Origin: a virus
Taxonomy: Duplodnaviria; Caudoviricetes
Reading direction: 5' to 3' (one strand)
DNA: 64,000 bases
IMG/VR virus record: IMGVR_UViG_3300021958_000023
Span: 1 to 64,000 of that record
Made by a program: the position numbers and the translations under genes
The notes under the pieces: generated by a model
Seen by the model: the letters and a program-made list of their open reading frames with translations, nothing else
Told to the model about the DNA's origin: nothing
Database searches by the model: none
Shown here: piece by piece, positions 3,001 through 33,121 of the stretch
How the letters are laid out: every line of letters starts with the position of its first letter
Numbering within the stretch: the stretch's first letter is position 1

Positions 3001-4906
3001 GTTAATTCTACGTCCAGACGGTTATTCTCTACACCTTCCATTTGACGGTGGTGTTGACATTACAGCCGGAACTTCGCCAAACTCAAAAATTACTCGTCAA
3101 ACACGTAAGTATTTTAGATATCAGTCTGGTAAAGGTATTCAAAACTCAGTTGCGATTAACTTTAATCCAGCAAAGATTATGCAAGACTTAATTAAAACCA
3201 GTGGTAATGTTGCTACTGTAAATACTCAAGAAGCGCACAATCTAAAAGTAGGTGATGAAATTACAATTGACGGAGCTGTGGTAACTACAGGTAATAACTA
3301 CTTTAACGGTGATTTTGCTGTCAGTGAAACTGCTAATGATTTCCAATTCAAGTATGTAATGGAAGCAGAACCAACACAAGCAAAAGCAGGAGGATTTCCA
3401 ACCTATGTTAGAAAATCATGGTTAGATTCTTATGTTCGCACAGGAATGTTTGATGATCAGAATGGATTCTTCTGGGAGTTTGATGGTCAAAAACTCTACT
3501 GTGTAAGACGCTCCTCAACACTGCAGATTGCAGGATCTGTCAATGTAACTCGTGGTTCTCAAGTTGTAGAAGGAGTGCTAACCTCATTTACTACTCAGCT
3601 TTCAAGAGATGATAAAGTAGTAATTCGTGGACAAACCTATCAAATTGTAGAAGTATCCTCAGATCTTCGCATGGTTGTGCAGCCTGCTTATCGTGGAGTA
3701 ACAGCCGCAAAAGTTAAAGTAACTAAAACTGTCGATACTCGCATTCCACAAGACGAGTGGAATTTAGATGTAGCAGACGGAACAGGCCCAAGTGGATTCG
3801 TTCTTAATACTACAAAGATTCAGATGGCCTACTCAGACTTCTCTTGGTATGGTGCAGGTAAGATTCGTTTTGGGTTCAAAGACCAAAAAGGTCATGTGAA
3901 GTATGTGCATGAGTTTAGACACAACAACCGTTTGAATGAATCATACTTTAGATCAGGTAACCTTCCAGGACGCTATGAAATTGAAAACGGTCCACAAGCT
4001 ACAACAGCTCCAACTCTCTTCCACTTTGGTACTTCTGTAATCATGGACGGAACATTTGATGATGATAAGGCCTATCTATTTACTCGTCAATCTCGTCCAA
4101 TGGCTTATACTAATGGTGGTTCGTCATCGTTTACCTCAAGTGCTGTTTCTACTTTTGAACAGATTACTCTAAATGGTAAGCGTGTGTATGTGTATTCTAT
4201 TCCAGTATCTAATGTAAACGCAGCTGCTACCACAGTAGGTGACCAGATTCGAGATGCTAGTAATGCAAACTTACCAGAAGGAACCTATGTTACACAGATT
4301 AAAGTTGATGGATCGAACTCAAAGATTTATACTAACTATCCAGCATTAGCTACACAGCCTTCTGCAGCTATCTATAATGATATCTCAAGTGGTGCAACAA
4401 TCACAGTTGGAGAACAAGAAGCAATTGACCTAACTCGTCCTCTACCGCTCGTTAGTTTGAGACTAGCTCCTTCAGTTGACTCTTCACTAACAGGATCAGT
4501 TGGAGAGCGTGAAATTATTAACCGAATGCAGCTAGCTCTAAAACAGGCTGGTATTACAACTAATCAGGGTGTAGAAGTGTTCTTGATTATTAATGCACTT
4601 CCATCTCAACTCTCATTTGAAGATGCTGACAAACCATCACTCTCAGAGATTATTGAGCACTCAGCTGGAGAAACATTAACTGGTGGTACAACAATTCTAG
4701 CTACAAAAGCTTCTGCCGGTTCTGTAGAAATTGACTTAGCAGAGTTGTTAGAGCTTGGTAACTCAATCTTAGGTGGTGATGGAATCTTCCCAGCTGGTCC
4801 TGACCTTCTTACAGTTGCTGTGCAGCCACAGTCTACGGCTTCAGTGACCTACTCAACTCCTTTTGAAGTCAGTGGTAAAATTTCATGGTCTGAATCTCAG
4901 GCATAA
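2..4906 (+). CDS. Very large virion structural / tail-associated protein (5' end lies outside the window) with an internal cupredoxin-like domain
   Basis: Frame is open from position 2; T/S/G-rich beta composition; GHPFYF...YYQCGVHALM motif; C-terminal region typical of marine T4-like structural proteins. Confidence 0.75.
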   Translation, partial: SASTANEADNRPTIDTDTYFTLTSNITSNTDTGRGTYQAGPVVAYDWESTHSLYLSSGTVNAATDQITWTAHGLYSNFCLLFNTPRKGESDGGMTDGTVYYVTRIDDDTFELYSDIARTSKVNLTTPLNTYGLCRLGLVYRIYSSTGQTRRTIYTSTAGGTENRYAGYFYMNNPKNSYSLRTINLSSYFSNPIGTVRVNNIYTYGDLGGYREFMYHYFQYNTPARNYYQRYNGYIYPNLELNGNSVYTSGSNTYMRWSIYIRSSVSYIYYRLYLTNTYTVAPTTEADFSYSGSDLYGEAYGAGLVAPDRLIAFQGDDPSSTYAYSSEQFSYLANQREKGRHGTIAAQYNYPLASTDEAGSFNVGYNSSTVTPGTASEIFYIFSRTLTSARNTIYAPNHGIASGATVFLVIPSTEYAAGERFVFSDSTGNSTTINQATIEATVTVVTADIIKVTLAVTPNTDDIQSFPSAFSIEYRVQNSLYNSIYILNHKISGTARAQYFAEGNDEGNRVYQITADGSAAFLFTEYDIGDNISNPSLTLYRGETYRFDLNASGHPFYFTTDNGAGYSAGGYVGEYTTGVSNSRSETGNVVFAVGASTPHTLYYQCGVHALMNGTVEIRDKGVEIGGLSNGQFYEISRATDSRITLRALNTVSASNVTGAIGAANNNTVTYFVDIETPLGSAVTTASITKVEFRGDFGNQNEYVVMSFSDGDEYFVGTSGQDTSNYLTEGFFGTKNISQILKTEGGKVGFDVTINPTSQVNFGRYLAGNKYYEIRFTVSGDAGTVTLNTASTSGKQEFIVDSVVGAYDGVFPITTTPSPKTFTFESDFKIPRRHYDFISSNVDTGTGVITLIDDHNLVTGEELTYSPGQNDSILTAGEGGNVFAISITANTFALADSSQNALNNSKLSLTAPTGTHTVRSDGIVKLVTGTGLISVAANGTSVTGTGTSFLTDFKRFDDIYIPTDGYIQPFTVDQITTDSNMTLYDATPALAANVTYQYSTQLILRPDGYSLHLPFDGGVDITAGTSPNSKITRQTRKYFRYQSGKGIQNSVAINFNPAKIMQDLIKTSGNVATVNTQEAHNLKVGDEITIDGAVVTTGNNYFNGDFAVSETANDFQFKYVMEAEPTQAKAGGFPTYVRKSWLDSYVRTGMFDDQNGFFWEFDGQKLYCVRRSSTLQIAGSVNVTRGSQVVEGVLTSFTTQLSRDDKVVIRGQTYQIVEVSSDLRMVVQPAYRGVTAAKVKVTKTVDTRIPQDEWNLDVADGTGPSGFVLNTTKIQMAYSDFSWYGAGKIRFGFKDQKGHVKYVHEFRHNNRLNESYFRSGNLPGRYEIENGPQATTAPTLFHFGTSVIMDGTFDDDKAYLFTRQSRPMAYTNGGSSSFTSSAVSTFEQITLNGKRVYVYSIPVSNVNAAATTVGDQIRDASNANLPEGTYVTQIKVDGSNSKIYTNYPALATQPSAAIYNDISSGATITVGEQEAIDLTRPLPLVSLRLAPSVDSSLTGSVGEREIINRMQLALKQAGITTNQGVEVFLIINALPSQLSFEDADKPSLSEIIEHSAGETLTGGTTILATKASAGSVEIDLAELLELGNSILGGDGIFPAGPDLLTVAVQPQSTASVTYSTPFEVSGKISWSESQA

Positions 4907-4915
4907 GGAGGTTCT

Positions 4916-6229
4916 GTGTCCAAACGAATTACAGTAAAACGCTCTGCTAACGCTACTGCAATAGAGTCAAATGGAACACTAGTTTGGGATTTTGAAGCAT
5001 ATAAACTTCGAGTGCACGACGGCGCCACAGAAGGCGGTCGTGCATTTTCTTTTACTCCCACAGGTTTTGGATATGTATTTCCAACTCCAGCTCCTGTAGC
5101 AGTTGCTGCTCGTAATAATCAAGGTGATACTTTTGGATACACTTTTTACGCAGCTCCTCAATTCTCGCTTACAGATCCTGTCACGACCGAAAAATATGCT
5201 TATGCTAGTGAGACTCCTGCAACAGTTAATACACCAACTAAAACTGGAGCAGCAAAGTTTGGATGGAGTTCGCGTGAAGGATATGGATATACCGCCTTTG
5301 GGTATAACTGGCCTACCTCAACTGCAAACTCTCCTTTTATCAATCCCACGCCTGTTTACAGTATAGGACCTTCTAGTGTAGAAGCGATTGCTTTTGCGTC
5401 TGATACTTGGAGTGTTAAATCAACAGCTCCATACTTTCTCTATACATCCTTTCCTGGTAGTGGGGCGCCAACTAACTTTCAGCGTCATACAAACTATAAT
5501 ACTAGCGGCGGACAGTCGTTAGCAGGACCATCAGATGGGTTTGTATTCGGAGGTAAAACTCCACGCTCAGGACCAGGAGTCAATCCAACTACTCGTTCTT
5601 ACTATCACCTTGAACAGTTTGGAGGTAAACGAGTTCCTTTTTCAGCAGATGATACAGTGCAATCCATGCCAAATTATCCATACCAGGAAAATACTACACG
5701 CCATGGATTTGCATCAGAAGACTTTGCCTATCTAGCAGGAGGCACAAATGTTAATCCTGATGGGTCTCCAGCATTTCTATATTATCCAGGCTCAAGCACT
5801 TCAGTAAATACAACTCAAGTTGATAAAATGGCTTTTTCTAACTACGCATGGAGTGCAAACATTGCAGATACAGGAACTGCAAGCTCTCGTAATGGTTTAT
5901 CACATAATTCTAATGAAGCAGGCTATGTAACAGGAGGTTCAGGACCTTCAGGAGCTGTTTATAACATAGCGAAAATGCCTTTTACTTCAGACACTCCTTT
6001 TACAGTGCTTTCAGGAGCAATTAGCACACCTACAGGACCTCCTTCATTTGTTGTAAATGGCCCATCAACTTCTTCAACTGTTTATGGTTTTTCAGTAATA
6101 CAAAATCCCTATAGTCCTCTATATCAGAGTGTTACTAGATTTCCTTTTTCTTCAGAAGATACTTTTACAGATGTTGGAGAACTAAACAACAACAACAATA
6201 AAAACAGTCCAAGTTATATTGCAAACTAA
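4916..6229 (+). CDS. Tail fibre/adhesin with Mtd_N-like N-terminus and Kelch-like propeller repeats
   Basis: KRITVKRS...LRVHDGATEGG N-terminus; repeats such as RFPFSSEDTFTDVGEL; GGAGG RBS before GTG start. Confidence 0.65.
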   Translation: MSKRITVKRSANATAIESNGTLVWDFEAYKLRVHDGATEGGRAFSFTPTGFGYVFPTPAPVAVAARNNQGDTFGYTFYAAPQFSLTDPVTTEKYAYASETPATVNTPTKTGAAKFGWSSREGYGYTAFGYNWPTSTANSPFINPTPVYSIGPSSVEAIAFASDTWSVKSTAPYFLYTSFPGSGAPTNFQRHTNYNTSGGQSLAGPSDGFVFGGKTPRSGPGVNPTTRSYYHLEQFGGKRVPFSADDTVQSMPNYPYQENTTRHGFASEDFAYLAGGTNVNPDGSPAFLYYPGSSTSVNTTQVDKMAFSNYAWSANIADTGTASSRNGLSHNSNEAGYVTGGSGPSGAVYNIAKMPFTSDTPFTVLSGAISTPTGPPSFVVNGPSTSSTVYGFSVIQNPYSPLYQSVTRFPFSSEDTFTDVGELNNNNNKNSPSYIAN

Positions 6230-23890: not shown

Positions 23891-24238
23891 TCATAATTTT
23901 TCCTCTACTGTAAATAACTCTGCGACATCAAAATCAACTCCGTTTCCAAACTGAATTACACAAGCCTCATCTGATTCTATATGGAACTCAACAACAGAAA
24001 ATGATCCTGTGTCTGGACTATAAAACCAATATACAGGAACAATAGTAAGATCTCTAGGATTCTCTTCATTAAAACTTGAGTTTCCAAGACCTCCGATGAG
24101 TGCCATCTCATCATTTCCCTCAAGCAACATTCTTACTTCAGCTACACTACCACACTGTATAGGTTTTAGTCTCCACTCAGCTGCTGAAGCTGAGAAAGAT
24201 AATAGTATAAATAGTAAAGTATTAAATATAGTTTTCAT
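23891..24238 (-). CDS. Hypothetical secreted protein
   Basis: Signal peptide ending ASA; KPIQCG...AC motif. Confidence 0.6.
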   Translation of the reverse strand: MKTIFNTLLFILLSFSASAAEWRLKPIQCGSVAEVRMLLEGNDEMALIGGLGNSSFNEENPRDLTIVPVYWFYSPDTGSFSVVEFHIESDEACVIQFGNGVDFDVAELFTVEEKL

Positions 24239-24698
24239 AGTCGTTCGGATCCCAATGTTGGCGGTCTCGAACTAAAATTTCAAATCCTGATCCGCTTAAA
24301 TGAACTCGCTCAATATCGGAAAGGTTAAGGGAGTCCAACTCACCATAATTTTGTAGAACATTAAAGGAAGTTGGTATCTTATCCATATCCCAATCTCTGA
24401 AAGCCACAATGCAAGGGATTGTAGAAAGTTTAGATTTGAGTGATGCTGCAAGTCTTTGTCCTCCATGAGTGCAGACATAGTTACCGTCTTTAAACATTAC
24501 ACAAAGAGGATATCGTAATCCTTCTTTGTTGATGCTATTTATTAGCTTGTTTAATATATAAGCCCAACCTGAATGTCTAGACTTATACCAATTTTCATCT
24601 CTACTGAGTTGATTCTGTATGAGATGTTTATCTAACTCTGCATAGGTTAGTATAAATTTTTGTGTTTCGTCTGTGTTTCCATTAAAAAGAAAAGTCAT
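24222..24698 (-). CDS. ParB/Srx-like N-terminal domain protein
   Basis: L.NSI.KEGLRYP...GGQRL.A...IPCIV. Confidence 0.6.
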   Translation of the reverse strand: MTFLFNGNTDETQKFILTYAELDKHLIQNQLSRDENWYKSRHSGWAYILNKLINSINKEGLRYPLCVMFKDGNYVCTHGGQRLAASLKSKLSTIPCIVAFRDWDMDKIPTSFNVLQNYGELDSLNLSDIERVHLSGSGFEILVRDRQHWDPNDYENYI

Positions 24699-24981
24699 AG
24701 TTTAAAAAGTAGTATTGTCCAACTGTTTTGAAAGTAGTTGCACCGTGAATATCAAACTTTGTTTTTAGATCTTCTTCTCCACTAATAAGAGCAGGACAAT
24801 GCTCTGAGTGAACGATTACAGTTTTACCTTGTATACCGTCCCATGACCACTCTTCTATTCTAAAAGGTATAGAGTCTTTGGTTCCGTAGGCAGCTGATAG
24901 AATAGTAGTTTCATCTTCAACAGGAACAGCTTCAAATAGTTGAAATATCTCTTGTTTATTCATGCTCACCGCCTGGATCAC
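24682..24981 (-). CDS. Hypothetical protein
   Basis: E.WSWDGI.G motif. Confidence 0.5.
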   Translation of the reverse strand: MIQAVSMNKQEIFQLFEAVPVEDETTILSAAYGTKDSIPFRIEEWSWDGIQGKTVIVHSEHCPALISGEEDLKTKFDIHGATTFKTVGQYYFLNYDFSF

Positions 24982-25327
24982 GAGGATCTAACAAAACTCT
25001 TTGACCGTTAATCCACATATACCCACGAGTGCGACTTACCGAATGATAACCATCAGTGCGCAACTTAAAAACCTCTGGATTGTTTTTTGCAACTGTAAAT
25101 GTTCCTACAGTAATAGCAATTGCTGCAAGAATGATAACATGAGCTATAGCTGTGATACCAAAAACCCACATTGATCCAAAATACATTGAAAATACAATAC
25201 ACCACATCCAAGCAAGCACTTGCATTACCATGTGACGAGTATTTAAGTCTGGAATATTGCGTAGTGGATTCAAACGATGATCCATAATAAGATTCCAATA
25301 ATCAACAGTTAAGGTTTTCATCTCCAA
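24956..25327 (-). CDS. Conserved marine-phage membrane protein
   Basis: NPLRNIPD..TRHMVMQVLAWMWCIVF; 2 transmembrane helices. Confidence 0.65.
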   Translation of the reverse strand: MEMKTLTVDYWNLIMDHRLNPLRNIPDLNTRHMVMQVLAWMWCIVFSMYFGSMWVFGITAIAHVIILAAIAITVGTFTVAKNNPEVFKLRTDGYHSVSRTRGYMWINGQRVLLDPRDPGGEHE

Positions 25328-25560
25328 TTCTCCACTCCACCTTGATACGCCTCTGAGAAGTCAAATTCCATTTGATCAGAATAGAAACGCACAGTATCTT
25401 CTGTCATCACACCACTCTCCCAGTTTTCAAGAGCATCGCGCACATACTCTATAGAGTTGTGTGGGTAGGCGATTGTTCCAATCACGCTCCAATCATCAAA
25501 AAAGTCTATCTTCCATATCTGATTATCGCAGTATATTCTACCATGTCTTGCCATTTTCAT
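25318..25560 (-). CDS. Hypothetical phage protein
   Basis: AAGGAG RBS; promoter TTGCAT-N17-TATGAT upstream. Confidence 0.55.
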   Translation of the reverse strand: MKMARHGRIYCDNQIWKIDFFDDWSVIGTIAYPHNSIEYVRDALENWESGVMTEDTVRFYSDQMEFDFSEAYQGGVENWR

Positions 25561-25877
25561 CTCCTTGTTCGCACTTCGTGCGAGCGCTGCCCTCCGATTC
25601 TTCTATCATAGCAAAAAAACCACCTCGATGCAAGCCAAAAATGAGGCGCACGGGTGGCGTGGAACGAGTTGTGATTTCATCACTGTTGTATCAGCTTAGT
25701 GAAATATAGATTGCATGAGAATCATCACTGCCACAACTGGTGTTAAAATTACAAGCATTTTAAGCTGTGCAGTAAATATCTCATTGCGTTTTCGCTTGCG
25801 CATTGAAACTCCGTTTCTTTTTTTCTTCCCTTAGAGTAACATAGATCTGACCTTCAGTCAAAAGTTGAATTCTCATA

Positions 25878-26138
25878 CTAAGAATTTGCGGATTCTAGAA
25901 GGGAATGTAGTGCGACTACGCGGTTCGCAGGCGTGATATCATAGACTTGTCCTAGTGGCTCGCCTAATGACTTGTGTTTGCTAACCATGCGTTGATGCTT
26001 ACAAGGTTTGCGATAGCTGGGACAAGAACAATAATTGCCAACTTGATATACCGCTAGTGGGTAGCGATCGTCTCCCCAAGATGACACTTCATATACGCTT
26101 TTACTGCGTTTCACTAGATACATTTTTTCCCTCTTCAT
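25878..26138 (-). CDS. SWIM zinc-finger protein
   Basis: CSCPSYRKPCKH. Confidence 0.7.
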   Translation of the reverse strand: MKREKMYLVKRSKSVYEVSSWGDDRYPLAVYQVGNYCSCPSYRKPCKHQRMVSKHKSLGEPLGQVYDITPANRVVALHSLLESANS

Positions 26139-26535
26139 GCCAGTTGCCTTGATATAGTCTAAAAATTTCTACTGCCCCACTTGAACGAATGTAGGCGCGT
26201 CCTCCATCTATCATCTGTCCATCATCAAATTTACGATAGTCATGTCGATAACGCGAATACTCATACTCATCATTCACACAGATCATGCCAAACAGTTCGC
26301 GTTCTATCTGATCTGCGGCACAGATATACGGTTTGCCCTCTTTATCATTCCAGTAGAGGCCAAAGTAGTAGTTACCAAATTTAGGATGTGGTGTGTCGCG
26401 ATAAAATATGTCTACAGGATGATTAGAGTCGCTCAGTTCTGAGGTGCAGACATATCGACAAGGTATACCGTCTTCTGAAGTATAGTGTTGCTCAACAGCT
26501 TCTATATCGAAAACAGGATAGTGATTGATTTTCAT
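26101..26535 (-). CDS. Conserved phage hypothetical protein
   Basis: PHPKFGNYYFG...SRYRHDY...IDGGRAYIR. Confidence 0.7.
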   Translation of the reverse strand: MKINHYPVFDIEAVEQHYTSEDGIPCRYVCTSELSDSNHPVDIFYRDTPHPKFGNYYFGLYWNDKEGKPYICAADQIERELFGMICVNDEYEYSRYRHDYRKFDDGQMIDGGRAYIRSSGAVEIFRLYQGNWHEEGKNVSSETQ

Positions 26536-26554
26536 GTGTCACTCTAGTAGTTAT

Positions 26555-26650
26555 AAGGTGAGAAGACGCGTAATCTGCCAAGGCTCCGCTTATGTTTAAC
26601 ATTTTTGGGTTGGCGTTGAGATCCGCAGATGTTGCGTCTCCTCAATTTGT
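26555..26650 (-). ncRNA. Small structured RNA or leader (about 95 nt; RNA-E)
   Basis: Own promoter at 26657-26685; 11-bp closing stem UGAGGAGACGC/GCGUCUUCUCA and inner stem AUCUGC/GCAGAU. Confidence 0.5.
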
Positions 26651-26656
26651 AATTAT

Positions 26657-26685
26657 ATATTATCAAAAATCTCAGCGCCATGCAA
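26657..26685 (-). promoter_or_regulatory. sigma70-like promoter of RNA-E
   Basis: TTGCAT-N17-TAATAT. Confidence 0.6.
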
Positions 26686-26720
26686 GTATAATTTTGCTTA
26701 AATTTATATTTTAGTAAAAG

Positions 26721-27270
26721 TAAAAAGGGCGTAACACGAGGTTACACCCTTTTACCTCTAGAGTTCTGGTGACAGAGCTACTAGATTCTCCTTTTGTGTA
26801 TACTGTCTTTCGTCCGAATCTAATTCAGCGACAAGGCATCCAAAGATGAACAGCTTACCTTAAAAATATAATCTTAAACTAGCCCCGCCTCTCGCCGTTT
26901 AAGCACTCGCACACTTCTCTTACCGAGGAACAACAGGTGGATGAGGTCCGTTGCGTCAACTCGTAAGCCCCCTCTAGCGAGTCTACCTACATAAGGTGTA
27001 GTCGCGAAGTCGAAACTTCCACTACGTCTCCCCCTCGCAGAAGAGCTATGTGAATAGGTGGGAATCGGCTATACCCACAACCTCCTAGTAGATACCTAAT
27101 GATTATCTAATATCTTTCAGAGGAACTTCGCATAGACTAGTTAGGTCTAACTCCTTGTAACTCTGCATCTCTACAGTCTTACAGTGCCACTACAGCTACG
27201 AATCAAGTTCATGTCTCTACGAACATTCTTCCTTGCACTATTCTTGGGAAGAGCGACTTCCCAATCTTTA
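26721..27270 (-). ncRNA. Large structured ncRNA, about 550 nt, ROOL-like (RNA-D)
   Basis: No ORF; own promoter and terminator; many hairpins including GAAGU-UUCG-ACUUC; blocks GUGCAAGGAAGAAUG, UUCGUAG, CUAGUCUAUGCGAAGUUCC and GGACGAAAG resemble ROOL as I recall it. Confidence 0.7.
26722..26753 (-). terminator. Intrinsic terminator of RNA-D
   Basis: AAAAGGGTGTAAC-ctcgt-GTTACGCCCTTTTT. Confidence 0.85.
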
Positions 27271-27276
27271 TAACTT

Positions 27277-27305
27277 ATCTTACCAAAATTTCTTCCAGTA
27301 AGCAA
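27277..27305 (-). promoter_or_regulatory. sigma70-like promoter of RNA-D
   Basis: TTGCTT-N17-TAAGAT. Confidence 0.7.
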
Positions 27306-27307
27306 GT

Positions 27308-28077
27308 AAAAAGTTAACTTATCTACTCCGACCCTCTCGTTTGTTACATAGAGCCACCAATCAGGCTCAGCCTACATAGATAAGTAGTGACCACCACCAA
27401 CCTCGTCAGTCACCAATGAGGCAGCATACACGCTGTTGTTCCTCCCCGACTCGTGAATTGTGTCTCACGACAAGACCCCGCCAGATATCCTGCTTTACAG
27501 CCTACGGCACGGGACTGAGATTTTCGCCATTTCGCTACTCAGTTCAACGAGAGGGACTCTACACCCCCATTGCCGAGACAACTCAGCATCTTACGCTTAG
27601 ATCATCGTTGAGGAAGGTTTTTTTAAGTAGGTTATCCTTACCGAAACTACTCAGAAAGAGGAGAGCGATTAAACTAAGGTCCGTCTATGACTGGACTACC
27701 TGCTCTTTCTTATATAACTGCCTGGTGGCACTAATTGCTCTTACCTAAGTAATCAGACCAGGACTTTCGCTGGCAGCCAGAACTAGTATAAGTTCAGCGC
27801 GAGTGAGGTATTAACGCCCCTCCTAGAACTTCACCGTTACCCCCGTTGGCAAAGGCTATTCTGGCGTCTAGCTTTCTGTTTGACGTGAACCCAGCTAGAG
27901 GGAACGGAACAAGGATATTTATATACCGCCTCCGAGGCAGGGCGGAAGAGAAAGGCTACAGGGCGGTTCCGTCCCTACCGTTGCATCATTAACTGGATTT
28001 AACTTCCGCTAGGAGGTCACTTGCCGAAGCTCGTTCACTCAATCTAGCCCAGAGGATGATGCCTTTCTCAATCTTTA
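27308..28077 (-). ncRNA. Very large structured ncRNA, about 770 nt (RNA-C; GOLLD-sized, family unassigned)
   Basis: Own promoter; GC-richer than flanks; perfect long-range helices 28061-28069/27948-27956 and 27546-27555/27332-27341; many local hairpins; no sense-strand ORF. Confidence 0.7.
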
Positions 28078-28083
28078 TAATGT

Positions 28084-28112
28084 ATTATAAAATATTTTTA
28101 ACCAATAAGCAA
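28084..28112 (-). promoter_or_regulatory. sigma70-like promoter of RNA-C
   Basis: TTGCTT-N17-TATAAT. Confidence 0.75.
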
Positions 28113-28114
28113 AC

Positions 28115-28286
28115 AAAAAATCATGAGCGAGAGTAGTTTCAATACTAGCGAAGAGTAATTTTGAATAGTGCCTAGTGAACTGCGTCATACAATACACATC
28201 GTTGGCGGGTCTTGCGTTCTTTACTCCTAGCACTCGCTCGGTGACTTTGACAGAGGTTTTACAAGAAGGTTATCCTCTGAACTTCT
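28115..28286 (-). ncRNA. Structured ncRNA, about 170 nt (RNA-B)
   Basis: Own promoter; stems CAGAGG/CCUCUG, GAGCGAG/CUCGCUC and GUGCUAG/CUAGGCAC; terminal U-run. Confidence 0.55.
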
Positions 28287-28292
28287 TTATAT

Positions 28293-28321
28293 ATAATACA
28301 AAAACTTTAACCATTAAGCAA
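28293..28321 (-). promoter_or_regulatory. sigma70-like promoter of RNA-B
   Basis: TTGCTT-N17-TATTAT. Confidence 0.7.
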
Positions 28322-28323
28322 CT

Positions 28324-28563
28324 AAAAAGTTGATGGGGAGGATTCTCGCGCCTCCCCAGACTTTGACATTCGAGCACGGGTCTTTGGTTGACTAGCCTTC
28401 TCTACTTTGTCTTAGTCTATACGCGGTGGAATTGTCGATACCACAGAACGCTGTTTCTATCGTATGAAACTAGTACGACTGATAATATTGCTTACGACTA
28501 GGGGCAGACAAACCTACCGTCGCGAGCTCGGTGAGTTGCAGCTAGGCTTCTCGCTCAATCAGT
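28324..28563 (-). ncRNA. Structured ncRNA, about 240 nt (RNA-A)
   Basis: Own promoter; 3' hairpin GGGGAGG/CCUCCCC then a U-run; no ORF. Confidence 0.55.
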
Positions 28564-28569
28564 AAATAT

Positions 28570-28598
28570 ATAATATAAAATTTTTAAGCGCGAAGCAA
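28570..28598 (-). promoter_or_regulatory. sigma70-like promoter of RNA-A
   Basis: TTGCTT-N17-TATTAT. Confidence 0.7.
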
Positions 28599-28599
28599 T

Positions 28600-28806
28600 T
28601 TAAAAATTATTATAAATTGTAGTTGCCCTGTCGCTAAATGCTATATTATAAACCTCTTCAAACCCGTCTTCTCGCATATAGGCTTCTTCGTTATGCCAGA
28701 GTCGCTTAATATAGCCATCATAACTAGTATAGGCTATATGGTCAGAAGTAATATAACCTTTGACCATATAGAATATTCTGTGCATCTCTTTATGACTAGT
28801 CTTCAT
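28600..28806 (-). CDS. Hypothetical phage protein
   Basis: FYMVKG...SYDGY.KRLW.NEEAY.REDGFEE motif. Confidence 0.6.
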   Translation of the reverse strand: MKTSHKEMHRIFYMVKGYITSDHIAYTSYDGYIKRLWHNEEAYMREDGFEEVYNIAFSDRATTIYNNF

Positions 28807-29500
28807 ATATCTCTAACACCTCACGCACTACAGGATGACGCTCAATATCTGCATGACTAAACTCAAGATACTTAATATAGTCTGTTGCTCCATAAGAAAC
28901 TAGACGATCCATAAAGTGAGCTAGCCCATTATTTTCAAATCCATTGTCTGCCTGATCTAGATCACCAGTTAAAATAAACTTTGATCCTTCGCCTAGTCGA
29001 GTAAGTAACATTTTTACTTGTTCGCGAGTTGCATTTTGCATCTCATCAGCAATTACCCAACAGTGTTTAAAAGTTCTGCCTCGCATATAAGCAAGAGGAG
29101 CTACTTCGATCTTTTCTTCTTTCATAAAATACTCCATCTGTTGACGAGAAAAGTAAGAAGCTAAAATATCAGTAATTGGCTTCATCCACGGATCCATCTT
29201 TTCTAGTAAATCGCCTGGTAAGTATCCGTGTTCTTCATCCACTGAAACAGCTGGTCGTGTTATCACAATCTTATCAAACTGTCTATCAGTAAACTCTTCT
29301 GCTCCTTTAGATACTGCTAGTAGGGTTTTACCTGTTCCACTCGGTCCTGTAGCTACAATAACATGAGTATGTATATCGTTCATTAAATTGATATATTCTT
29401 GTTGCTTTTCGTTTTTTGGCGATATAGTTACTTTTTTACTAGGACGAATAGTTGCTAGTTCTGTATCTACTATTTTGATAGAAGCATTTCTTTTTGTCAT
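28796..29500 (-). CDS. phoH: PhoH-family ATPase
   Basis: GPSGTGKT, ITRPAV, GYLPG, AYMRGRTF, DEMQN, LTRLGEGSK; AAGGAG RBS before ATG 29500. Confidence 0.95.
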   Translation of the reverse strand: MTKRNASIKIVDTELATIRPSKKVTISPKNEKQQEYINLMNDIHTHVIVATGPSGTGKTLLAVSKGAEEFTDRQFDKIVITRPAVSVDEEHGYLPGDLLEKMDPWMKPITDILASYFSRQQMEYFMKEEKIEVAPLAYMRGRTFKHCWVIADEMQNATREQVKMLLTRLGEGSKFILTGDLDQADNGFENNGLAHFMDRLVSYGATDYIKYLEFSHADIERHPVVREVLEIYED

Positions 29501-29518
29501 AAATTTCTCCTTAAAGTC

Positions 29519-29549
29519 AAAAAAATAGAGGTCGTCAAGACCTCTATTT
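29519..29549 (-). terminator. Terminator-like hairpin upstream of the phoH RBS
   Basis: AAATAGAGGTC-TTGAC-GACCTCTATTT plus T-run. Confidence 0.65.
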
Positions 29550-29604
29550 ACTACTATTTTCAGTAGTCTTTTAATTGCTTTTCTGTCTTTTTTAGACTGA
29601 ACAC

Positions 29605-30102
29605 TCATGTACTATTCCTTAAATAGTCTAACACATAAGTAGCACTTGATAGTTCAAATGGATCATCTGAAGTATTATCAGATTTTCCTGATTCAATGAA
29701 TGATTTAGTAATATTCATTCCCTCAGTAATAATAGCGTATCTCCAAGAACGGTAACCAAATCCTTTATCAGATTTATTAACTAACATACCCATTTGGCGA
29801 GTAAACTCAGCGTTACCATCTGGAATCATTTTAATATTTGAAATACCTAATTCTTTTGCCCAAGCGTTCATCACAAAAGAATCATTTACAGATAAACAGT
29901 AGATATTTTCAATTCCATATCCTTTAAATTCATCATATAGTAAGTCAAACTGTGGTAAGTGAGTTGATGAGCAAGTAGGTGTAAATGCTCCTGGAAGTGC
30001 AAGCATAATGTTCCTGTCTACAAACATCTCATCTGTAGTTTTTTCTGTCCACTCTCCGTCCTCTCGAATTTTGAATGTTACACTAGGTAATCTCGTTATC
30101 AT
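29605..30102 (-). CDS. Peroxiredoxin (Prx5-like)
   Basis: LPGAFTPTCSSTHLP, SVNDSFVMNAW, RSWRYA. Confidence 0.93.
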   Translation of the reverse strand: MITRLPSVTFKIREDGEWTEKTTDEMFVDRNIMLALPGAFTPTCSSTHLPQFDLLYDEFKGYGIENIYCLSVNDSFVMNAWAKELGISNIKMIPDGNAEFTRQMGMLVNKSDKGFGYRSWRYAIITEGMNITKSFIESGKSDNTSDDPFELSSATYVLDYLRNST

Positions 30103-30256
30103 TATCCCCCTCCTTTCTAAGTTCTTCAATTTGTTTATGGAGATTTTCTATCATATGCTTAAAGGACTGAGTTTCAATCTCTAATCTCAGTAGTTTTTCT
30201 TTAATTTCTTGCATATCTTCTTTAAGTGTATTCATTTTGTAACCTCTTGTCCAGTA

Positions 30257-33121
30257 TTATCCTACTCCAGGTGCTCCGTAACCATATCCGTAAGAAGTAG
30301 AAGCAGGAGTTAATTCTGTAGTACTATCTGCTGATACATATCCAGACGCAAAAGGAAATCTTTCAATACGACCACCAGAAGTAAGCGTAAATCCTGAGTA
30401 TTTACCACTAACAGCAGTTCCAGCAAACTCTGTATCACGAGCTGAAGGAGAGAAAAATCCATTATTTCGTAGAGTTCCATACCACCTATCTCTAAGTTCT
30501 CCATAGCCGACAGATTTTTGACCGCTAGCAAGAGGTATAGTAGCAAAACCAGTTTGATCTTGGTCTGAAGTCATAACATAGCCATTAGTACTCCATGCTA
30601 AAAGTTGTCCGGACACAGGATATTCTGCTAAGTCAGTTTTAGACACAGAGGTAGAGCCTGAAGCTCCTGTAAATTTAGTCACGTGATCATAATCTACGTT
30701 TCCAGCATTTGCTGGGTATTCAGAGCGTCCAGCTATAACATACCCATAGTCCATACTAGCACCTGAAGCTCCACTCATACGAGCTGTATCAATATTATTA
30801 GGTTCTGTAGCTGTAGCTTCAGAAGGAAACGCAAAACGTTCCATAGTATTTACCGCAGTCTGGGATCCGGTGATTCCTCCAGTCCAACCTCCTCCTACAT
30901 AACCTTGATTACTTACACCTAGTGAGAATCCAAAATGGCCAGCACGCCCTGTTGAAAGAGTTGCAACAGACGAAGTAATTGAAGTAGAAGGAAATACAAA
31001 ACGAGAAATAGCAGTTTGCATACCTTCATCTGTAGAACCAGGAACAAATAGCCCATATCCTCCAGCTGAATAAGCATAATTAGTGTTATCTGGAGAAATT
31101 GTTACAGCATGATTAGTAAATGTTTGAGTCTGCCCTAGTGTTCCTGGATCAACTGCTACCCCTGATGATGAAACAAGAGGAAAATAGGTTACTTTTTGAG
31201 TTTTATTTGTCTGAAGCGGTGTAGGGGTTAATGCAGGACCTCCTCCAATAGATGCTCCATAACCAGAAGCTGCAGGGGGTTCCATGTGATTAGTAGCAAA
31301 ACTATTAGGGTCAGTATAGGCCGGTCCTGTAGGAGGATAAGCGTGCCATTTTGAAAAATAAGTGTGTCCAGAAGAAGGAACTGAGATACCATTAGCAGAG
31401 TGTTGTCCTGGTTGGGTTGGCGAAGTATATTCTGAATAGTTTGTAGAAGGTATAGTGCCAGGAGTACCATTGAATCTAACCCATGCAAAACCTCCTCCTC
31501 CTAATTCTGAATAAGTAGGAGTATTTACTACAGGAAAAGGACTATGGTTAAAAGCTTCATGACCAGGAAAAGTCGCTGCTCCAAAACTTAAAGCACTTCC
31601 ATCATAGTAAATTTTTCCATAGGCAGAGGGAAATGCAGGAGCTTTCCAGTTTCCTCCATATCCTTTGTTAACAGTTAGAGAACCGCTTCCTGGATACGCA
31701 GGACCTTGAATAGGTACAAAACCAGGTAATCCTGGTACAGTAGAAGTGTTAGGAACTGTTATTGAATAACCTACGGCACCAGCGCCGTGCATAGCCCCAA
31801 AAGTTCCTGGCCATGCAGATATAGGCCTATTATGCTCTAAACTGGTACCTGCATACCCATCTCCACTATTTGTATGAGTTGGAGACCTAGCATCAGTGCC
31901 TGTAGTAACAGAACCACCAGCGCCCCCATCTCCTGCTGTTGCATACCCGAGTGCGTACATAGCTCTGTCAGCATTAGATAGTTGTGCTGGTTCTGTGGTT
32001 GTGGAAGGAATTGGAACTGTAGGATTAATAGGATGATCCCAGCCAGATCTTGTATACCCTTTTTGAAGCCAGTTTAAAGTAGTTTGAGGACCATTGGTTG
32101 CTCCTGAATAACTAGAAGTTGAGGGAGATGATATAGGAATATAGGTTGAAGGTAAACCAGCAGGAGATCCTGGAGCCCCGCCAGTAACTAGTCCTCCACT
32201 TCCTCCAACAGCTCCTCCTCCTGCTACGACATAGTTAGTTCCACCAACGTTAACTGTTGTTGTTCCTCCAGAAGTTGTAGTAGCTTGCCCTACAGTAATT
32301 GTAACTGGGGTTGAAGGAGTAACAGGTATAGTAGTAGGATAGTAAGCTATGGCTCCTGCACCTCCCCCACCTGCTCCAGACATATCAACTTGATAAGCGT
32401 AGTGAGGCCACCACCAATAACCAGAATCATAAGAAAAAGGAGACTCACCACCACCAGTACCATCTCCTCCAGTATTCATATAAGTTCCAGTTGCTCCTCC
32501 TGCACCAACAGCAGCATAAACATGCATAGTACTAATACCTTGACCAGCAATAGCCCCAACAGTAGAGTTTATAGGAGAATCATATACATAATCAGCTGTA
32601 GGAGCCTTTTTATAGGCTGTATCTGATCCAATAGAGTTGATACCAGTACCAAAACTATTAATACCACGAACTACAAATTCGTGTAGTGTGCCTCCAGGAG
32701 TTGAAGGAATTGTGACAGTTGCTGAAGTAGAAGTAATTGGAGAGCCAAGATAATCAGTAGAAATATAAGTATACGCATCAGTAGAAGGAGAAGGTCTCCA
32801 ACCGACCTGCCAAGTATTAGCTGATTCACCATCTGTATCTGCTGTCCAAGATACATCAATGCCATCAAATACTGCTGCAGCTGTAGAGGCTGTTACAGAG
32901 GGTGCACCGTGAACTGTCGCGCGAAGATCATAAAAGTTTGAAAGAGAAAGCTCCCCAGAAGAAGGGATAGTAGCGCCTGGACCACCACCTAGGCGTTCTC
33001 CAGCTGCTACAACAGAACCGCCAGCATAATAATCACCAAGAGATCCTGGAGCTGTACGAACAGGAGAATAGAGATTTTGAAGATCGGAAATCGAAATTTC
33101 CCCAGAGGTGGGTGTTGCCAT
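30257..33121 (-). CDS. Tail adhesin: fibre-tip N-terminus, FnIII domain, Gly-rich segment, C-terminal propeller
   Basis: MATPTSGEISISDL...LSLSNFY; VSW...FVVRGINSFGTG; GGGGAG runs; RFAFPS/RFPFAS repeats. Confidence 0.7.
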   Translation of the reverse strand: MATPTSGEISISDLQNLYSPVRTAPGSLGDYYAGGSVVAAGERLGGGPGATIPSSGELSLSNFYDLRATVHGAPSVTASTAAAVFDGIDVSWTADTDGESANTWQVGWRPSPSTDAYTYISTDYLGSPITSTSATVTIPSTPGGTLHEFVVRGINSFGTGINSIGSDTAYKKAPTADYVYDSPINSTVGAIAGQGISTMHVYAAVGAGGATGTYMNTGGDGTGGGESPFSYDSGYWWWPHYAYQVDMSGAGGGGAGAIAYYPTTIPVTPSTPVTITVGQATTTSGGTTTVNVGGTNYVVAGGGAVGGSGGLVTGGAPGSPAGLPSTYIPISSPSTSSYSGATNGPQTTLNWLQKGYTRSGWDHPINPTVPIPSTTTEPAQLSNADRAMYALGYATAGDGGAGGSVTTGTDARSPTHTNSGDGYAGTSLEHNRPISAWPGTFGAMHGAGAVGYSITVPNTSTVPGLPGFVPIQGPAYPGSGSLTVNKGYGGNWKAPAFPSAYGKIYYDGSALSFGAATFPGHEAFNHSPFPVVNTPTYSELGGGGFAWVRFNGTPGTIPSTNYSEYTSPTQPGQHSANGISVPSSGHTYFSKWHAYPPTGPAYTDPNSFATNHMEPPAASGYGASIGGGPALTPTPLQTNKTQKVTYFPLVSSSGVAVDPGTLGQTQTFTNHAVTISPDNTNYAYSAGGYGLFVPGSTDEGMQTAISRFVFPSTSITSSVATLSTGRAGHFGFSLGVSNQGYVGGGWTGGITGSQTAVNTMERFAFPSEATATEPNNIDTARMSGASGASMDYGYVIAGRSEYPANAGNVDYDHVTKFTGASGSTSVSKTDLAEYPVSGQLLAWSTNGYVMTSDQDQTGFATIPLASGQKSVGYGELRDRWYGTLRNNGFFSPSARDTEFAGTAVSGKYSGFTLTSGGRIERFPFASGYVSADSTTELTPASTSYGYGYGAPGVG

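Follow-up and report, generated by a model that had tools for sequence, protein, structure and literature searches.

A modular island of conserved, structured noncoding RNA genes in a phage genome

Large structured RNAs of phages and the present locus

GOLLD and ROOL are reportedly large, ornate RNAs of phages and prophages that Weinberg described in 2009 and 2017. Here, we discuss a 2-kb island of structured RNAs on the minus strand at positions 26555-28598 of a virus record (IMG/VR record IMGVR_UViG_3300021958_000023). The window, i.e., the whole stretch of DNA analysed, is the first 64 kb (64,000 nt) of this 173,519-bp record, which is rated complete. As with GOLLD and ROOL, for which cages have been reported (PMC12286853), the RNAs in question are large (500-800 nt), multi-domain and phage-borne and carry promoters of their own, and the leading idea for their role is self-assembly. 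GOLLD and ROOL also often lie beside tRNA genes, as do the related loci L040, L051 and L166. However, the island carries several tandem RNAs that swap modules and not one giant RNA.

Another family relevant here is manA, described as a riboswitch candidate in the 5′ untranslated regions (UTRs) of marine phage and bacterial genes and derived from marine metagenomes, T4-like cyanophages and two gamma-proteobacteria (PMC2864571). Rfam files it as cis-regulatory (RF01745). In vitro, as seen by cryo-electron microscopy (cryo-EM), manA RNAs form RNA-only closed assemblies of 8, 10 and 60 copies, which are built from pentamers via kissing loops (bioRxiv 10.64898/2026.07.01.735769, a July 2026 preprint). 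With respect to gene arrangement, the PeSL promoter-terminator cassettes that shuffle genes in T4-type phages (PMC2839356, PMC4122927) offer a third comparison.

A conserved and noncoding RNA island

The island is a conserved, noncoding, structured and modular set of RNA genes whose sequences turn up in RNA libraries from the environment. Its neighbours are phoH on one side and a 144-aa open reading frame (ORF) on the other, both on the same strand as the island, which constitutes the largest ORF-free stretch of the ~173.5-kb genome. An earlier reading of the letters without database searches (the sequence-only reading) had proposed five individually promoted noncoding RNAs (ncRNAs). Four of the units, RNA1 to RNA4, are RNA genes with four promoters, while the fifth promoter drives a structured leader (RNA5), and RNA3 and RNA4 are not cleanly separate. 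That this is a real and expressed ncRNA island we regard as nearly certain.

PhoH was used to reach three contigs (L002, L003 and L004, hereafter the close relatives) that carry homologous islands at 75-78% identity, and pattern scans of IMG/VR and JGI metagenomes gave more than 100 further loci. Relative to the close relatives, the island has neither a conserved ORF nor a third-position substitution bias, in agreement with the earlier statement that it lacks a credible protein gene. Substitutions divide by phase as 143/154/147 and 136/134/138, with no 3-base periodicity; in the same comparison those in phoH are periodic (95/40/18 and 115/46/24). Indels fall in hairpin tips or affect whole sub-domains. 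Could short ORFs nevertheless encode hidden small proteins, making these dual-function RNAs? Mechanical ORFs of 35-110 aa occur on both strands, but neither their position nor their length is conserved in the close relatives, and the even spread of substitutions over the phases and the placement of the indels argue against them as well. This leaves the coding alternative extremely improbable. The only ORF in the island of at least 100 aa, a 110-aa ORF at 27416-27748 (+) that is antisense in RNA3, is kept in no relative and was rejected as a gene and taken as chance.

Alignment with the close relatives reveals invariant blocks, and hairpins that vary by compensatory changes. The covariation that the sequence-only reading had asked to be examined among homologues is there: compensatory base-pair changes occur in every segment. 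GC is 0.47-0.53 inside RNA3 and RNA4 versus 0.30-0.40 in the flanks, as expected from the description of the segments as GC-richer. The same segments had been called helix-dense. The compensatory changes bear this out, whereas single-sequence minimum free energies are not significantly lower than those of shuffled sequences (z-scores of only -0.7 to -1.9), and hence helix density rests on the comparative evidence.

None of the families suggested earlier for comparison (ROOL, GOLLD, IMES, raiA, 6S, transfer-messenger RNA [tmRNA] and RNase P) matches the island at E up to 10. At the gathering thresholds of Rfam 15, the window has tRNA matches outside the island and none in it, and at E up to 10 with relaxed filters, positions 26300-28900 match manA only, below threshold. 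The GOLLD, ROOL, HEARO, OLE, raiA and IMES models are unmatched in this range (E up to 10) and in related loci. Rfam searches of 26 related loci (12 + 14 at gathering thresholds; five at E up to 0.1) leave the new modules unmatched; the matches found there (tRNAs, one manA, one glutamine riboswitch and one alpha-tmRNA) are all off these modules. ARAGORN finds no tmRNA or tRNA gene in 24000-31000.

Promoters, terminators and unit junctions

All five minus-strand promoter-like sites in the sequence-only reading were found, each with a spacer of exactly 17 bp. They are host-type, sigma-70-like promoters. P1 (28570-28598; TTGCTT and TATTAT) is kept in all three close relatives; P2 (28293-28321; TTGCTT and TG-TATTAT), P3 (28084-28112; TTGCTT and TATAAT) and P5 (26657-26685; TTGCAT and TAATAT) are likewise kept in relatives, and P4 (27277-27305; TTGCTT and TAAGAT) is present in L003 and L004 but not in L002. 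The pattern TTGCWT-N17-TAWDAT has six matches in the 64-kb window, five of them in the island and the sixth at 25605-25633, where 0.55 would be expected; none of 100 shuffles reaches six. A looser whole-genome scan finds the island promoter type in front of protein genes elsewhere as well. Hence, the phage uses this host-type promoter routinely, and the island stands out by its unusual density, one per 400 bp.

The U-runs said to abut the next -35 box are present at 28324-28328, 28115-28120 and 27308-27312. At these three junctions, which are kept in relatives, 2-3 nt separate the U-run from the -35 box. The similar 5′ words (..GATTGAG, ..GATTGGG and ..AATTGAG) are present too. RNA4 is closed by an intrinsic terminator (26721-26753, minus strand, from a terminator scan) with a 13-bp stem followed by a U-run, also kept in relatives. 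A proper terminator is missing from RNA3. The fifth unit has no terminator and runs into the ATG at 26535, so that RNA5 (26536-26650, minus strand; five homologues) is the structured 5′ leader of the 144-aa ORF rather than a stand-alone RNA. The leader is closed by a helix of 10 bp (GAGGAGACGC/GCGUCUUCUC) and contains the 20-mer UCUGCGGAUCUCAACGCCAA, which is invariant.

These boundaries resemble PeSLs in that a stem-loop and U-run are followed at once by an early-type promoter, and in that close relatives differ by the gain, loss and re-ordering of units. PeSLs, however, flank small protein ORFs in the hyperplastic regions of T4-type phages, whereas those of the island flank RNA genes, and a T4-type myovirus background was not found (the record has no Pfam matches for gp32, gp23 or gp19).

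Sequences in environmental RNA libraries

Six RNA runs contain part of the stretch, and the contigs of four of them were compared with positions 24000-31500. RNA1 is represented by contigs at 28374-28550 and 28377-28547, and the 5′ domain of RNA3 by contigs at 27844-28058, 27844-28054 and 27868-28005. Further contigs in RNA3 span 27714-27897 and 27347-27700, and its range 27714-28005 is also covered. Three contigs (27044-27669, 27070-27650 and 27051-27437) extend from RNA3 across promoter P4, bridging 27270-27310, to the end of the manA-like domain in RNA4. Hence, transcription of RNA3 continues into RNA4. In all four runs the contigs break off at 27044-27070 without a loose end. This position marks the 3′ border of the manA-like domain, and the shared stop weakly hints at a processing site or an RNA 3′ end there. 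Overall, the contigs of the four runs fall on RNA1, RNA3 and the manA-like domain and span the boundary between RNA3 and RNA4. RNA2, RNA4b/c and RNA5 have no contigs in the four runs, and the flanks (24000-26760 and 28769-31500) have only three low-identity scraps of 32-36 nt; this says nothing on absence or abundance.

In run X18, a 247-nt contig consists of a closed 217-nt path plus a 30-nt overlap and joins position 28346 to 28562. The joint connects CGCGA to GAAU, where 28346 lies in the terminal-hairpin loop of RNA1 and 28562 is the start predicted from P1, i.e., an RNA end 8 nt downstream of the P1 -10 box. Possible sources of the contig are a circle of RNA1, artefactual ligation of its ends and a tandem variant. 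Whether circle or ligation artefact, the joint places both ends of RNA1.

RNA1, RNA2 and the R2-type family

RNA1 (28324-28563, minus strand; about 220-240 nt; eight homologues) is held together by a closing helix in which the 5′ word UUGAGCG pairs with CGUGCUCGA. Its invariant 9-nt hairpin loop, AGCUCGCGA, holds the palindrome UCGCGA, and its 3′ end consists of a GGGGAGG/CCUCCCC hairpin and a U-run. The consensus fold has 48 pairs, eight of them with compensatory changes, and RNA1 has no Rfam match.

RNA2, the R2-type unit of this phage (28115-28286, minus strand; about 170 nt), begins with an H-type pseudoknot (GGAUAACC ... A-rich loop ... CC). Its invariant core is AGUA..GAA.GCAAG / CUUCGCUAGUA, and in its long closing helix an upstream A-tract pairs with the terminal U-run, so that both RNA ends are buried. 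In the family alignment of 40 distinct sequences, 95.6% of the cells are paired, compared with 84.0% in shuffles and 35-53% with slid partners, and 16 of the 35 pairs show compensatory (double) changes. The covariation score is 0.316 versus 0.103, a value that none of 500 shuffles reaches, and both stems of the pseudoknot covary.

H-type pseudoknots with an A-rich third loop occur in telomerase RNA, in the SAM-II and preQ1-II aptamers and in viral frameshift or nuclease-resistant elements. The R2 element shares with them two covarying stems and an invariant A-run placed for the stem groove; it differs in its position at the extreme 5′ end of a noncoding RNA, with no ligand or frameshift context, and has no sequence or model match to the telomerase, SAM-II, preQ1-II or viral pseudoknot families. 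In a tRNA array on another viral contig, L179 (minus strand as printed, about 3960-4240), the R2 pseudoknot word GGATAACCATCGTAAAAAAACC is found a single time, and about 200 nt further downstream comes a near copy; a U-run follows each, and the remainder of R2 is missing. The R2 pseudoknot may also be a small stand-alone element.

Matches to the R2 pattern number 24 in viral and 82 in metagenome DNA. In 185,579 species genomes (bacterial and archaeal) there are three matches only, all without the pseudoknot and chance-like. The modules are virus-only in that they are seen in viral and metagenome DNA and not in the bacterial species genomes searched.

RNA3 and its domains

RNA3 (27306-28078, minus strand; about 770 nt) is a multi-domain RNA whose consensus fold from five homologues has 126 pairs, 23 of them compensatory. 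The A-domain at its 5′ end (27937-28075, minus strand; GGCAUCAUCC ... GUUAAUGAUGCAACGG ... GACGGAA) is represented by 14 distinct homologues, among which CG/UA and AU/GC pairs covary, and has an nhmmer E of 1e-26. A covarying pair suspected in its GCAUCAU/AUGAUGC helix was dropped, the members being inconsistent. Further downstream, at 27605-27651 (minus strand), RNA3 holds a second copy of the R2-type pseudoknot (nhmmer E 3e-8, R2 profile positions 4-51) with 95.7% identity to L002 over 46 nt. In the E-domain (27369-27477, minus strand; AGUCGGGG ... CGAGGUUGGUGG), 11 of the 14 predicted pairs are compensatory among 28 distinct homologues. Whole sub-domains of RNA3 are missing in relatives; L002 lacks two of them together with promoter P4.

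RNA4: the manA-like domain, domain 4b and the C4 motif

RNA4 is about 550 nt long. Its 5′ part, at 27048-27264 (minus strand), aligns with RF01745 along the full model (positions 1-192 of 192), the outer pseudoknot-like helix included, with 40.5 bits (E 2.2e-8 in a 2.6-kb search), a score below the gathering score of 55.2 bits. At gathering thresholds, manA has no match in the window or in a genome search. The P1 hairpin of the model, the outer helix and the 3′ hairpin align with high posterior, and the central hairpins with low posterior and several non-canonical pairs. The hairpin loops UGGU and ACCA of the manA consensus are, by eye, UAGU and ACUA both in the window and in L051. These changes would keep a loop-loop pair. 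In L051, manA scores 61.3 bits, above threshold, and sits in the middle of an RNA of ~1 kb headed by an A-domain; 14 other related loci that were scanned have no manA. L003 and L004 lack the entire manA-like domain and are otherwise unchanged.

As to context, the domain heads a 550-nt RNA and lies outside the 5′ UTR of any protein gene, which sets it apart from manA as originally described: downstream of it, structured RNA continues for about 330 nt, followed by a strong terminator, and the next ORF has its own promoter. This additional RNA comprises the middle domain 4b (26861-27050, minus strand; eight homologues), which by eye resembles the B/C part behind the A-domain in other phages (L019, L040 and L082), and the C4 motif (26783-26862, minus strand; GUCGCUGAAUUAGAUUCGGAC ... 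AAAGGAGAA). The fold of RNA4 b+c has 98 pairs, 19 of them compensatory. For C4 itself, the covariation score over 24 distinct sequences is 0.296 versus 0.163, which none of 500 shuffles reaches, and two pairs divide 16:8 between pair types with zero mispairs. A Shine-Dalgarno-like AAGGAG is conserved in C4, and no start codon follows it. Its pattern has no match in the 185,579 species genomes, and blastn against GenBank phages gives only three matches of 25-30 nt (E 0.9).

C4 occurs in a second setting. In T4-like marine phage contigs it lies directly past the stop codon of gp32 (PF08804, E 1e-42) and is followed by a hairpin and a terminator, e.g., at L118:9598-10485 (-) and L130:3843-4754 (+), and in about 25 further IMG/VR contigs. 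This element 3′ of gp32 has no Rfam family match. Another viral contig with C4, L117, carries a permuted tmRNA of the alphaproteobacterial type at 5034-5553 (-; 99.5 bits).

Modules fused, split and re-ordered among relatives

The RNAs are chains of modules that each fold independently, namely RNA1, the R2-type unit, the A-domain, the E-domain, the manA-like domain, 4b and C4. In at least 80 related marine or estuarine phage loci, the same modules are fused, split or re-ordered on one strand within 1-2 kb. Profile searches find the A-domain, R2 and the E-domain together in most loci, and the usual order is the A-domain, R2 about 450-540 nt later and the E-domain about 840 nt further. An A-domain lies upstream in 39 of 80 R2 instances; a promoter-like site intervenes in 18 of these and is missing in 21. 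Where this site is missing, the two modules form one RNA of ~600 nt, examples being L019, L040 and L053; in the remaining 18, R2 stands behind the A-domain with its own promoter. R2 also occurs alone behind a protein gene (L175 and L181), and C4 is fused to its 5′ side in L173 and L195. Relative to the usual order, the lineage of the window is permuted: RNA1 and R2 are followed by RNA3, which contains the A-domain, inserts, the second pseudoknot copy and the E-domain, and by RNA4, with the manA-like domain, then 4b, then C4. In several relatives tRNA genes are close by. Two follow R2 immediately at L040:800-915, five tRNA matches lie about 1 kb upstream of the RNA modules at L051:1-1160, and tRNAs flank C4 on both sides at L166:4730-5150.

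The module boundaries in related loci are terminator-then-promoter junctions. Together with the lineage-specific indels and re-ordering, they resemble PeSL shuffling (PMC2839356, PMC4122927) and raise the question of whether the island is selfish or neutral filler, that is, PeSL-like cassettes that recombine and carry structured spacers for transcript stability or termination, with no function in trans. Against filler stand the invariant cores and the many compensatory changes across at least 40 divergent members, the synteny of the A-domain, R2 and the E-domain kept in most loci, and the elaborate pseudoknot, which argues for selection on the folded RNAs. We consider filler very unlikely.

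Probable trans action and the cis-regulatory alternative

Because the units have their own promoters and terminators, are followed in relatives by tRNA genes or new promoters, occur in free order and, in the case of the manA-like domain, can be lost alone, the RNAs probably act in trans rather than as cis-regulatory elements. An array of cis-regulatory leaders would instead be a 2-kb multi-aptamer 5′ region exerting termination/antitermination control over the 144-aa ORF and the genes behind it. The shared strand with the downstream genes, the RNA5 leader abutting the ATG, the read-through from RNA3 into RNA4, the weak terminators directly before promoters and the cataloguing of manA in Rfam as a cis-regulatory riboswitch candidate all fit such an array. 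On the other hand, a strong 13-bp terminator closes RNA4, and the 144-aa ORF has its own promoter, P5. In L040, L175, L181 and L178 the units sit promoter-to-terminator and are followed by tRNA genes or another promoter, module order is permuted between lineages whose downstream genes differ, and L003 and L004 have lost the manA-like domain without other change. On balance, an array of leaders appears improbable.

Possible roles as architectural RNAs or monomeric sponges

The best overall explanation, which we advance tentatively, is that the island specifies abundant, trans-acting, self-assembling architectural RNAs. Host RNA polymerase would make the island RNAs in large amounts, and the RNAs would accumulate with their ends buried, at the 5′ side by a pseudoknot or closing helix and at the 3′ side by pairing of the U-run with an A-tract. 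The accumulated RNAs would then work in trans as self-assembling architectural RNAs. In this scenario, the manA-like domain would form pentamer-based closed oligomers by kissing loops, as manA RNAs do in vitro, the invariant palindromic loop of RNA1 would provide homodimer contacts, and the particles would carry the other modules or be stabilised by them. Candidate tasks for such particles include sequestering a host factor, tRNAs or nucleases, and organising phage RNA. Self-assembly as the working principle is favoured by the manA link, the invariant palindromic loop AGCUCGCGA and the pattern of fusion and fission; we see it as possible, with more doubt than confidence. The scaffold or cage idea of the sequence-only reading receives indirect support from the likeness to manA, and for one module only, the manA-like domain at 27048-27264, which is about 10% of the island.

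The same abundance and protected ends might serve another purpose. As monomeric decoys or sponges, abundant, nuclease-resistant and early RNAs would titrate a host or phage factor without higher-order assembly, and the targets could be an RNase, an RNA chaperone, a single-stranded DNA-binding (SSB) or gp32-like protein, ribosomes or a defence sensor. The strong host-type promoters, the buried 5′ and 3′ ends and the presence of the sequences in RNA libraries suit sponges, as do the invariant single-stranded R2 cores (AGUA..GAA.GCAAG and CUUCGCUAGUA), the AAGGAG of C4 without a start codon, the position of C4 directly behind gp32 in T4-like phages, and the restriction of the modules to viral and metagenome DNA, with none in the bacterial species genomes searched. 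However, a reiterated short binding motif of the CsrB/RsmZ type is missing, each module being a large unique fold, and self-assembly has been reported for the manA family, of which one module is a relative. Sponges are, in our estimate, rather unlikely, but rank next after self-assembly and ahead of an array of leaders.

Several observations weigh against architectural RNAs that act in trans. The library contigs give neither strand, ends nor level, and the joint between 28346 and 28562 comes from one run and may be a ligation or reverse transcription artefact. The cages are known from one preprint, which studied other manA members in vitro, and, as discussed above, the manA-like domain scores below the gathering threshold and the single-sequence folding energies are unremarkable. 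Pairing between RNAs fares no better. The complementarity between RNA1 and RNA2 is not kept in relatives: their complementary ends are not conserved, and the duplex beats shuffles in the window and L002 alone and fails to do so in L003 and L229. For the A-domain (with 60 nt added) and R2, 58 paired loci yield no conserved antiparallel run of at least five columns. Heteromeric pairing is thus unsupported. Finally, the island lies on the strand of the downstream gene and RNA3 is read through, so that a long regulatory leader is possible.

A more specific version of the architectural reading takes the island as the parts list of an RNA-only or RNA-scaffolded particle made by the phage. A manA-type cage would be linked through RNA3-RNA4 read-through to displayed or packed modules, RNA1 would be present as a 217-nt circle or end-joined, and R2 would be dosed separately. 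We regard this version as unlikely. If it were true, the fusion and fission of modules would be the RNA equivalent of Rosetta-stone protein fusions, marking the parts of one machine.

The phage and the genes around the island

The DNA runs that contain the stretch are mainly estuary metagenomes from many studies, and the genome is that of an uncultured estuarine phage with no close relative among cultured phages. Its PhoH has its best match among GenBank phages at 49% (Pseudomonas jumbo phages), and a 500-aa ORF of the structural region has no phage match. An identity as a T4-like cyanophage was dropped, given the poor PhoH match and the absence of Pfam matches for psbA, gp23, gp32 and gp19 in the complete record. 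Of these searches, that for gp32 succeeded on a positive control (L118 and L130), and those for gp23 and gp19 had none. By blastn against 50,697 GenBank phage records, the island and the A-domain are unmatched, although near-identical records may be masked.

Upstream of the island lie phoH (28796-29608, minus strand) and a 68-aa ORF (28600-28806, minus strand) that overlaps the end of phoH by 11 nt and has no family match. In the close relatives, the island begins 8-15 nt past phoH; the 68-aa ORF is thus an insertion particular to the phage of the window. Downstream is the 144-aa ORF (26101-26535, minus strand). PHROG and Pfam searches of these two neighbours were uninformative, with one PHROG of unknown function only. 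Just past the 144-aa ORF, an 86-aa ORF (25878-26138, minus strand) matches a SWIM zinc finger (E 1e-4), and its region is kept in the close relatives. The sixth promoter-type site (25605-25633, minus strand) is followed by a GC-rich stretch (0.45) to about 25318 and an 80-aa ORF without Pfam or PHROG match; blastn does not find this region in the close relatives. The stretch could hold a further RNA or a small protein gene.

In most relatives, the interval from R2 to the E-domain encodes a conserved helix-turn-helix protein of 105 aa, e.g., at L019:4435-4749 (-), L053:790-1104 (-) and L178:1625-1939 (+). The protein matches a PHROG annotated 'DNA binding protein', bears a weak likeness to T5 D5 and to sigma-70 region 4, and its gene has its own promoter and a structured leader. 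The phage of the window has a copy with 47% identity at 173160-173462, at the far end of the record, and two weaker paralogues near 78.4 and 81.0 kb.

Implications for phage RNA biology

GOLLD, ROOL and now manA belong to the large ornate RNAs of phages that, according to recent cryo-EM, build cages. The island is a compact natural system in which a manA-type module occurs together with at least four further conserved RNA families that have no Rfam match, among them the R2-type family, which counts at least 40 distinct members and whose pseudoknot is well supported. The relatives, in which modules are fused, split, deleted and re-ordered, amount to natural 'experiments' on these RNAs. C4 behind gp32 in T4-like marine phages is a further conserved element. 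For the manA family, the locus argues for re-filing from 'cis-regulatory' to 'RNA gene or domain'.

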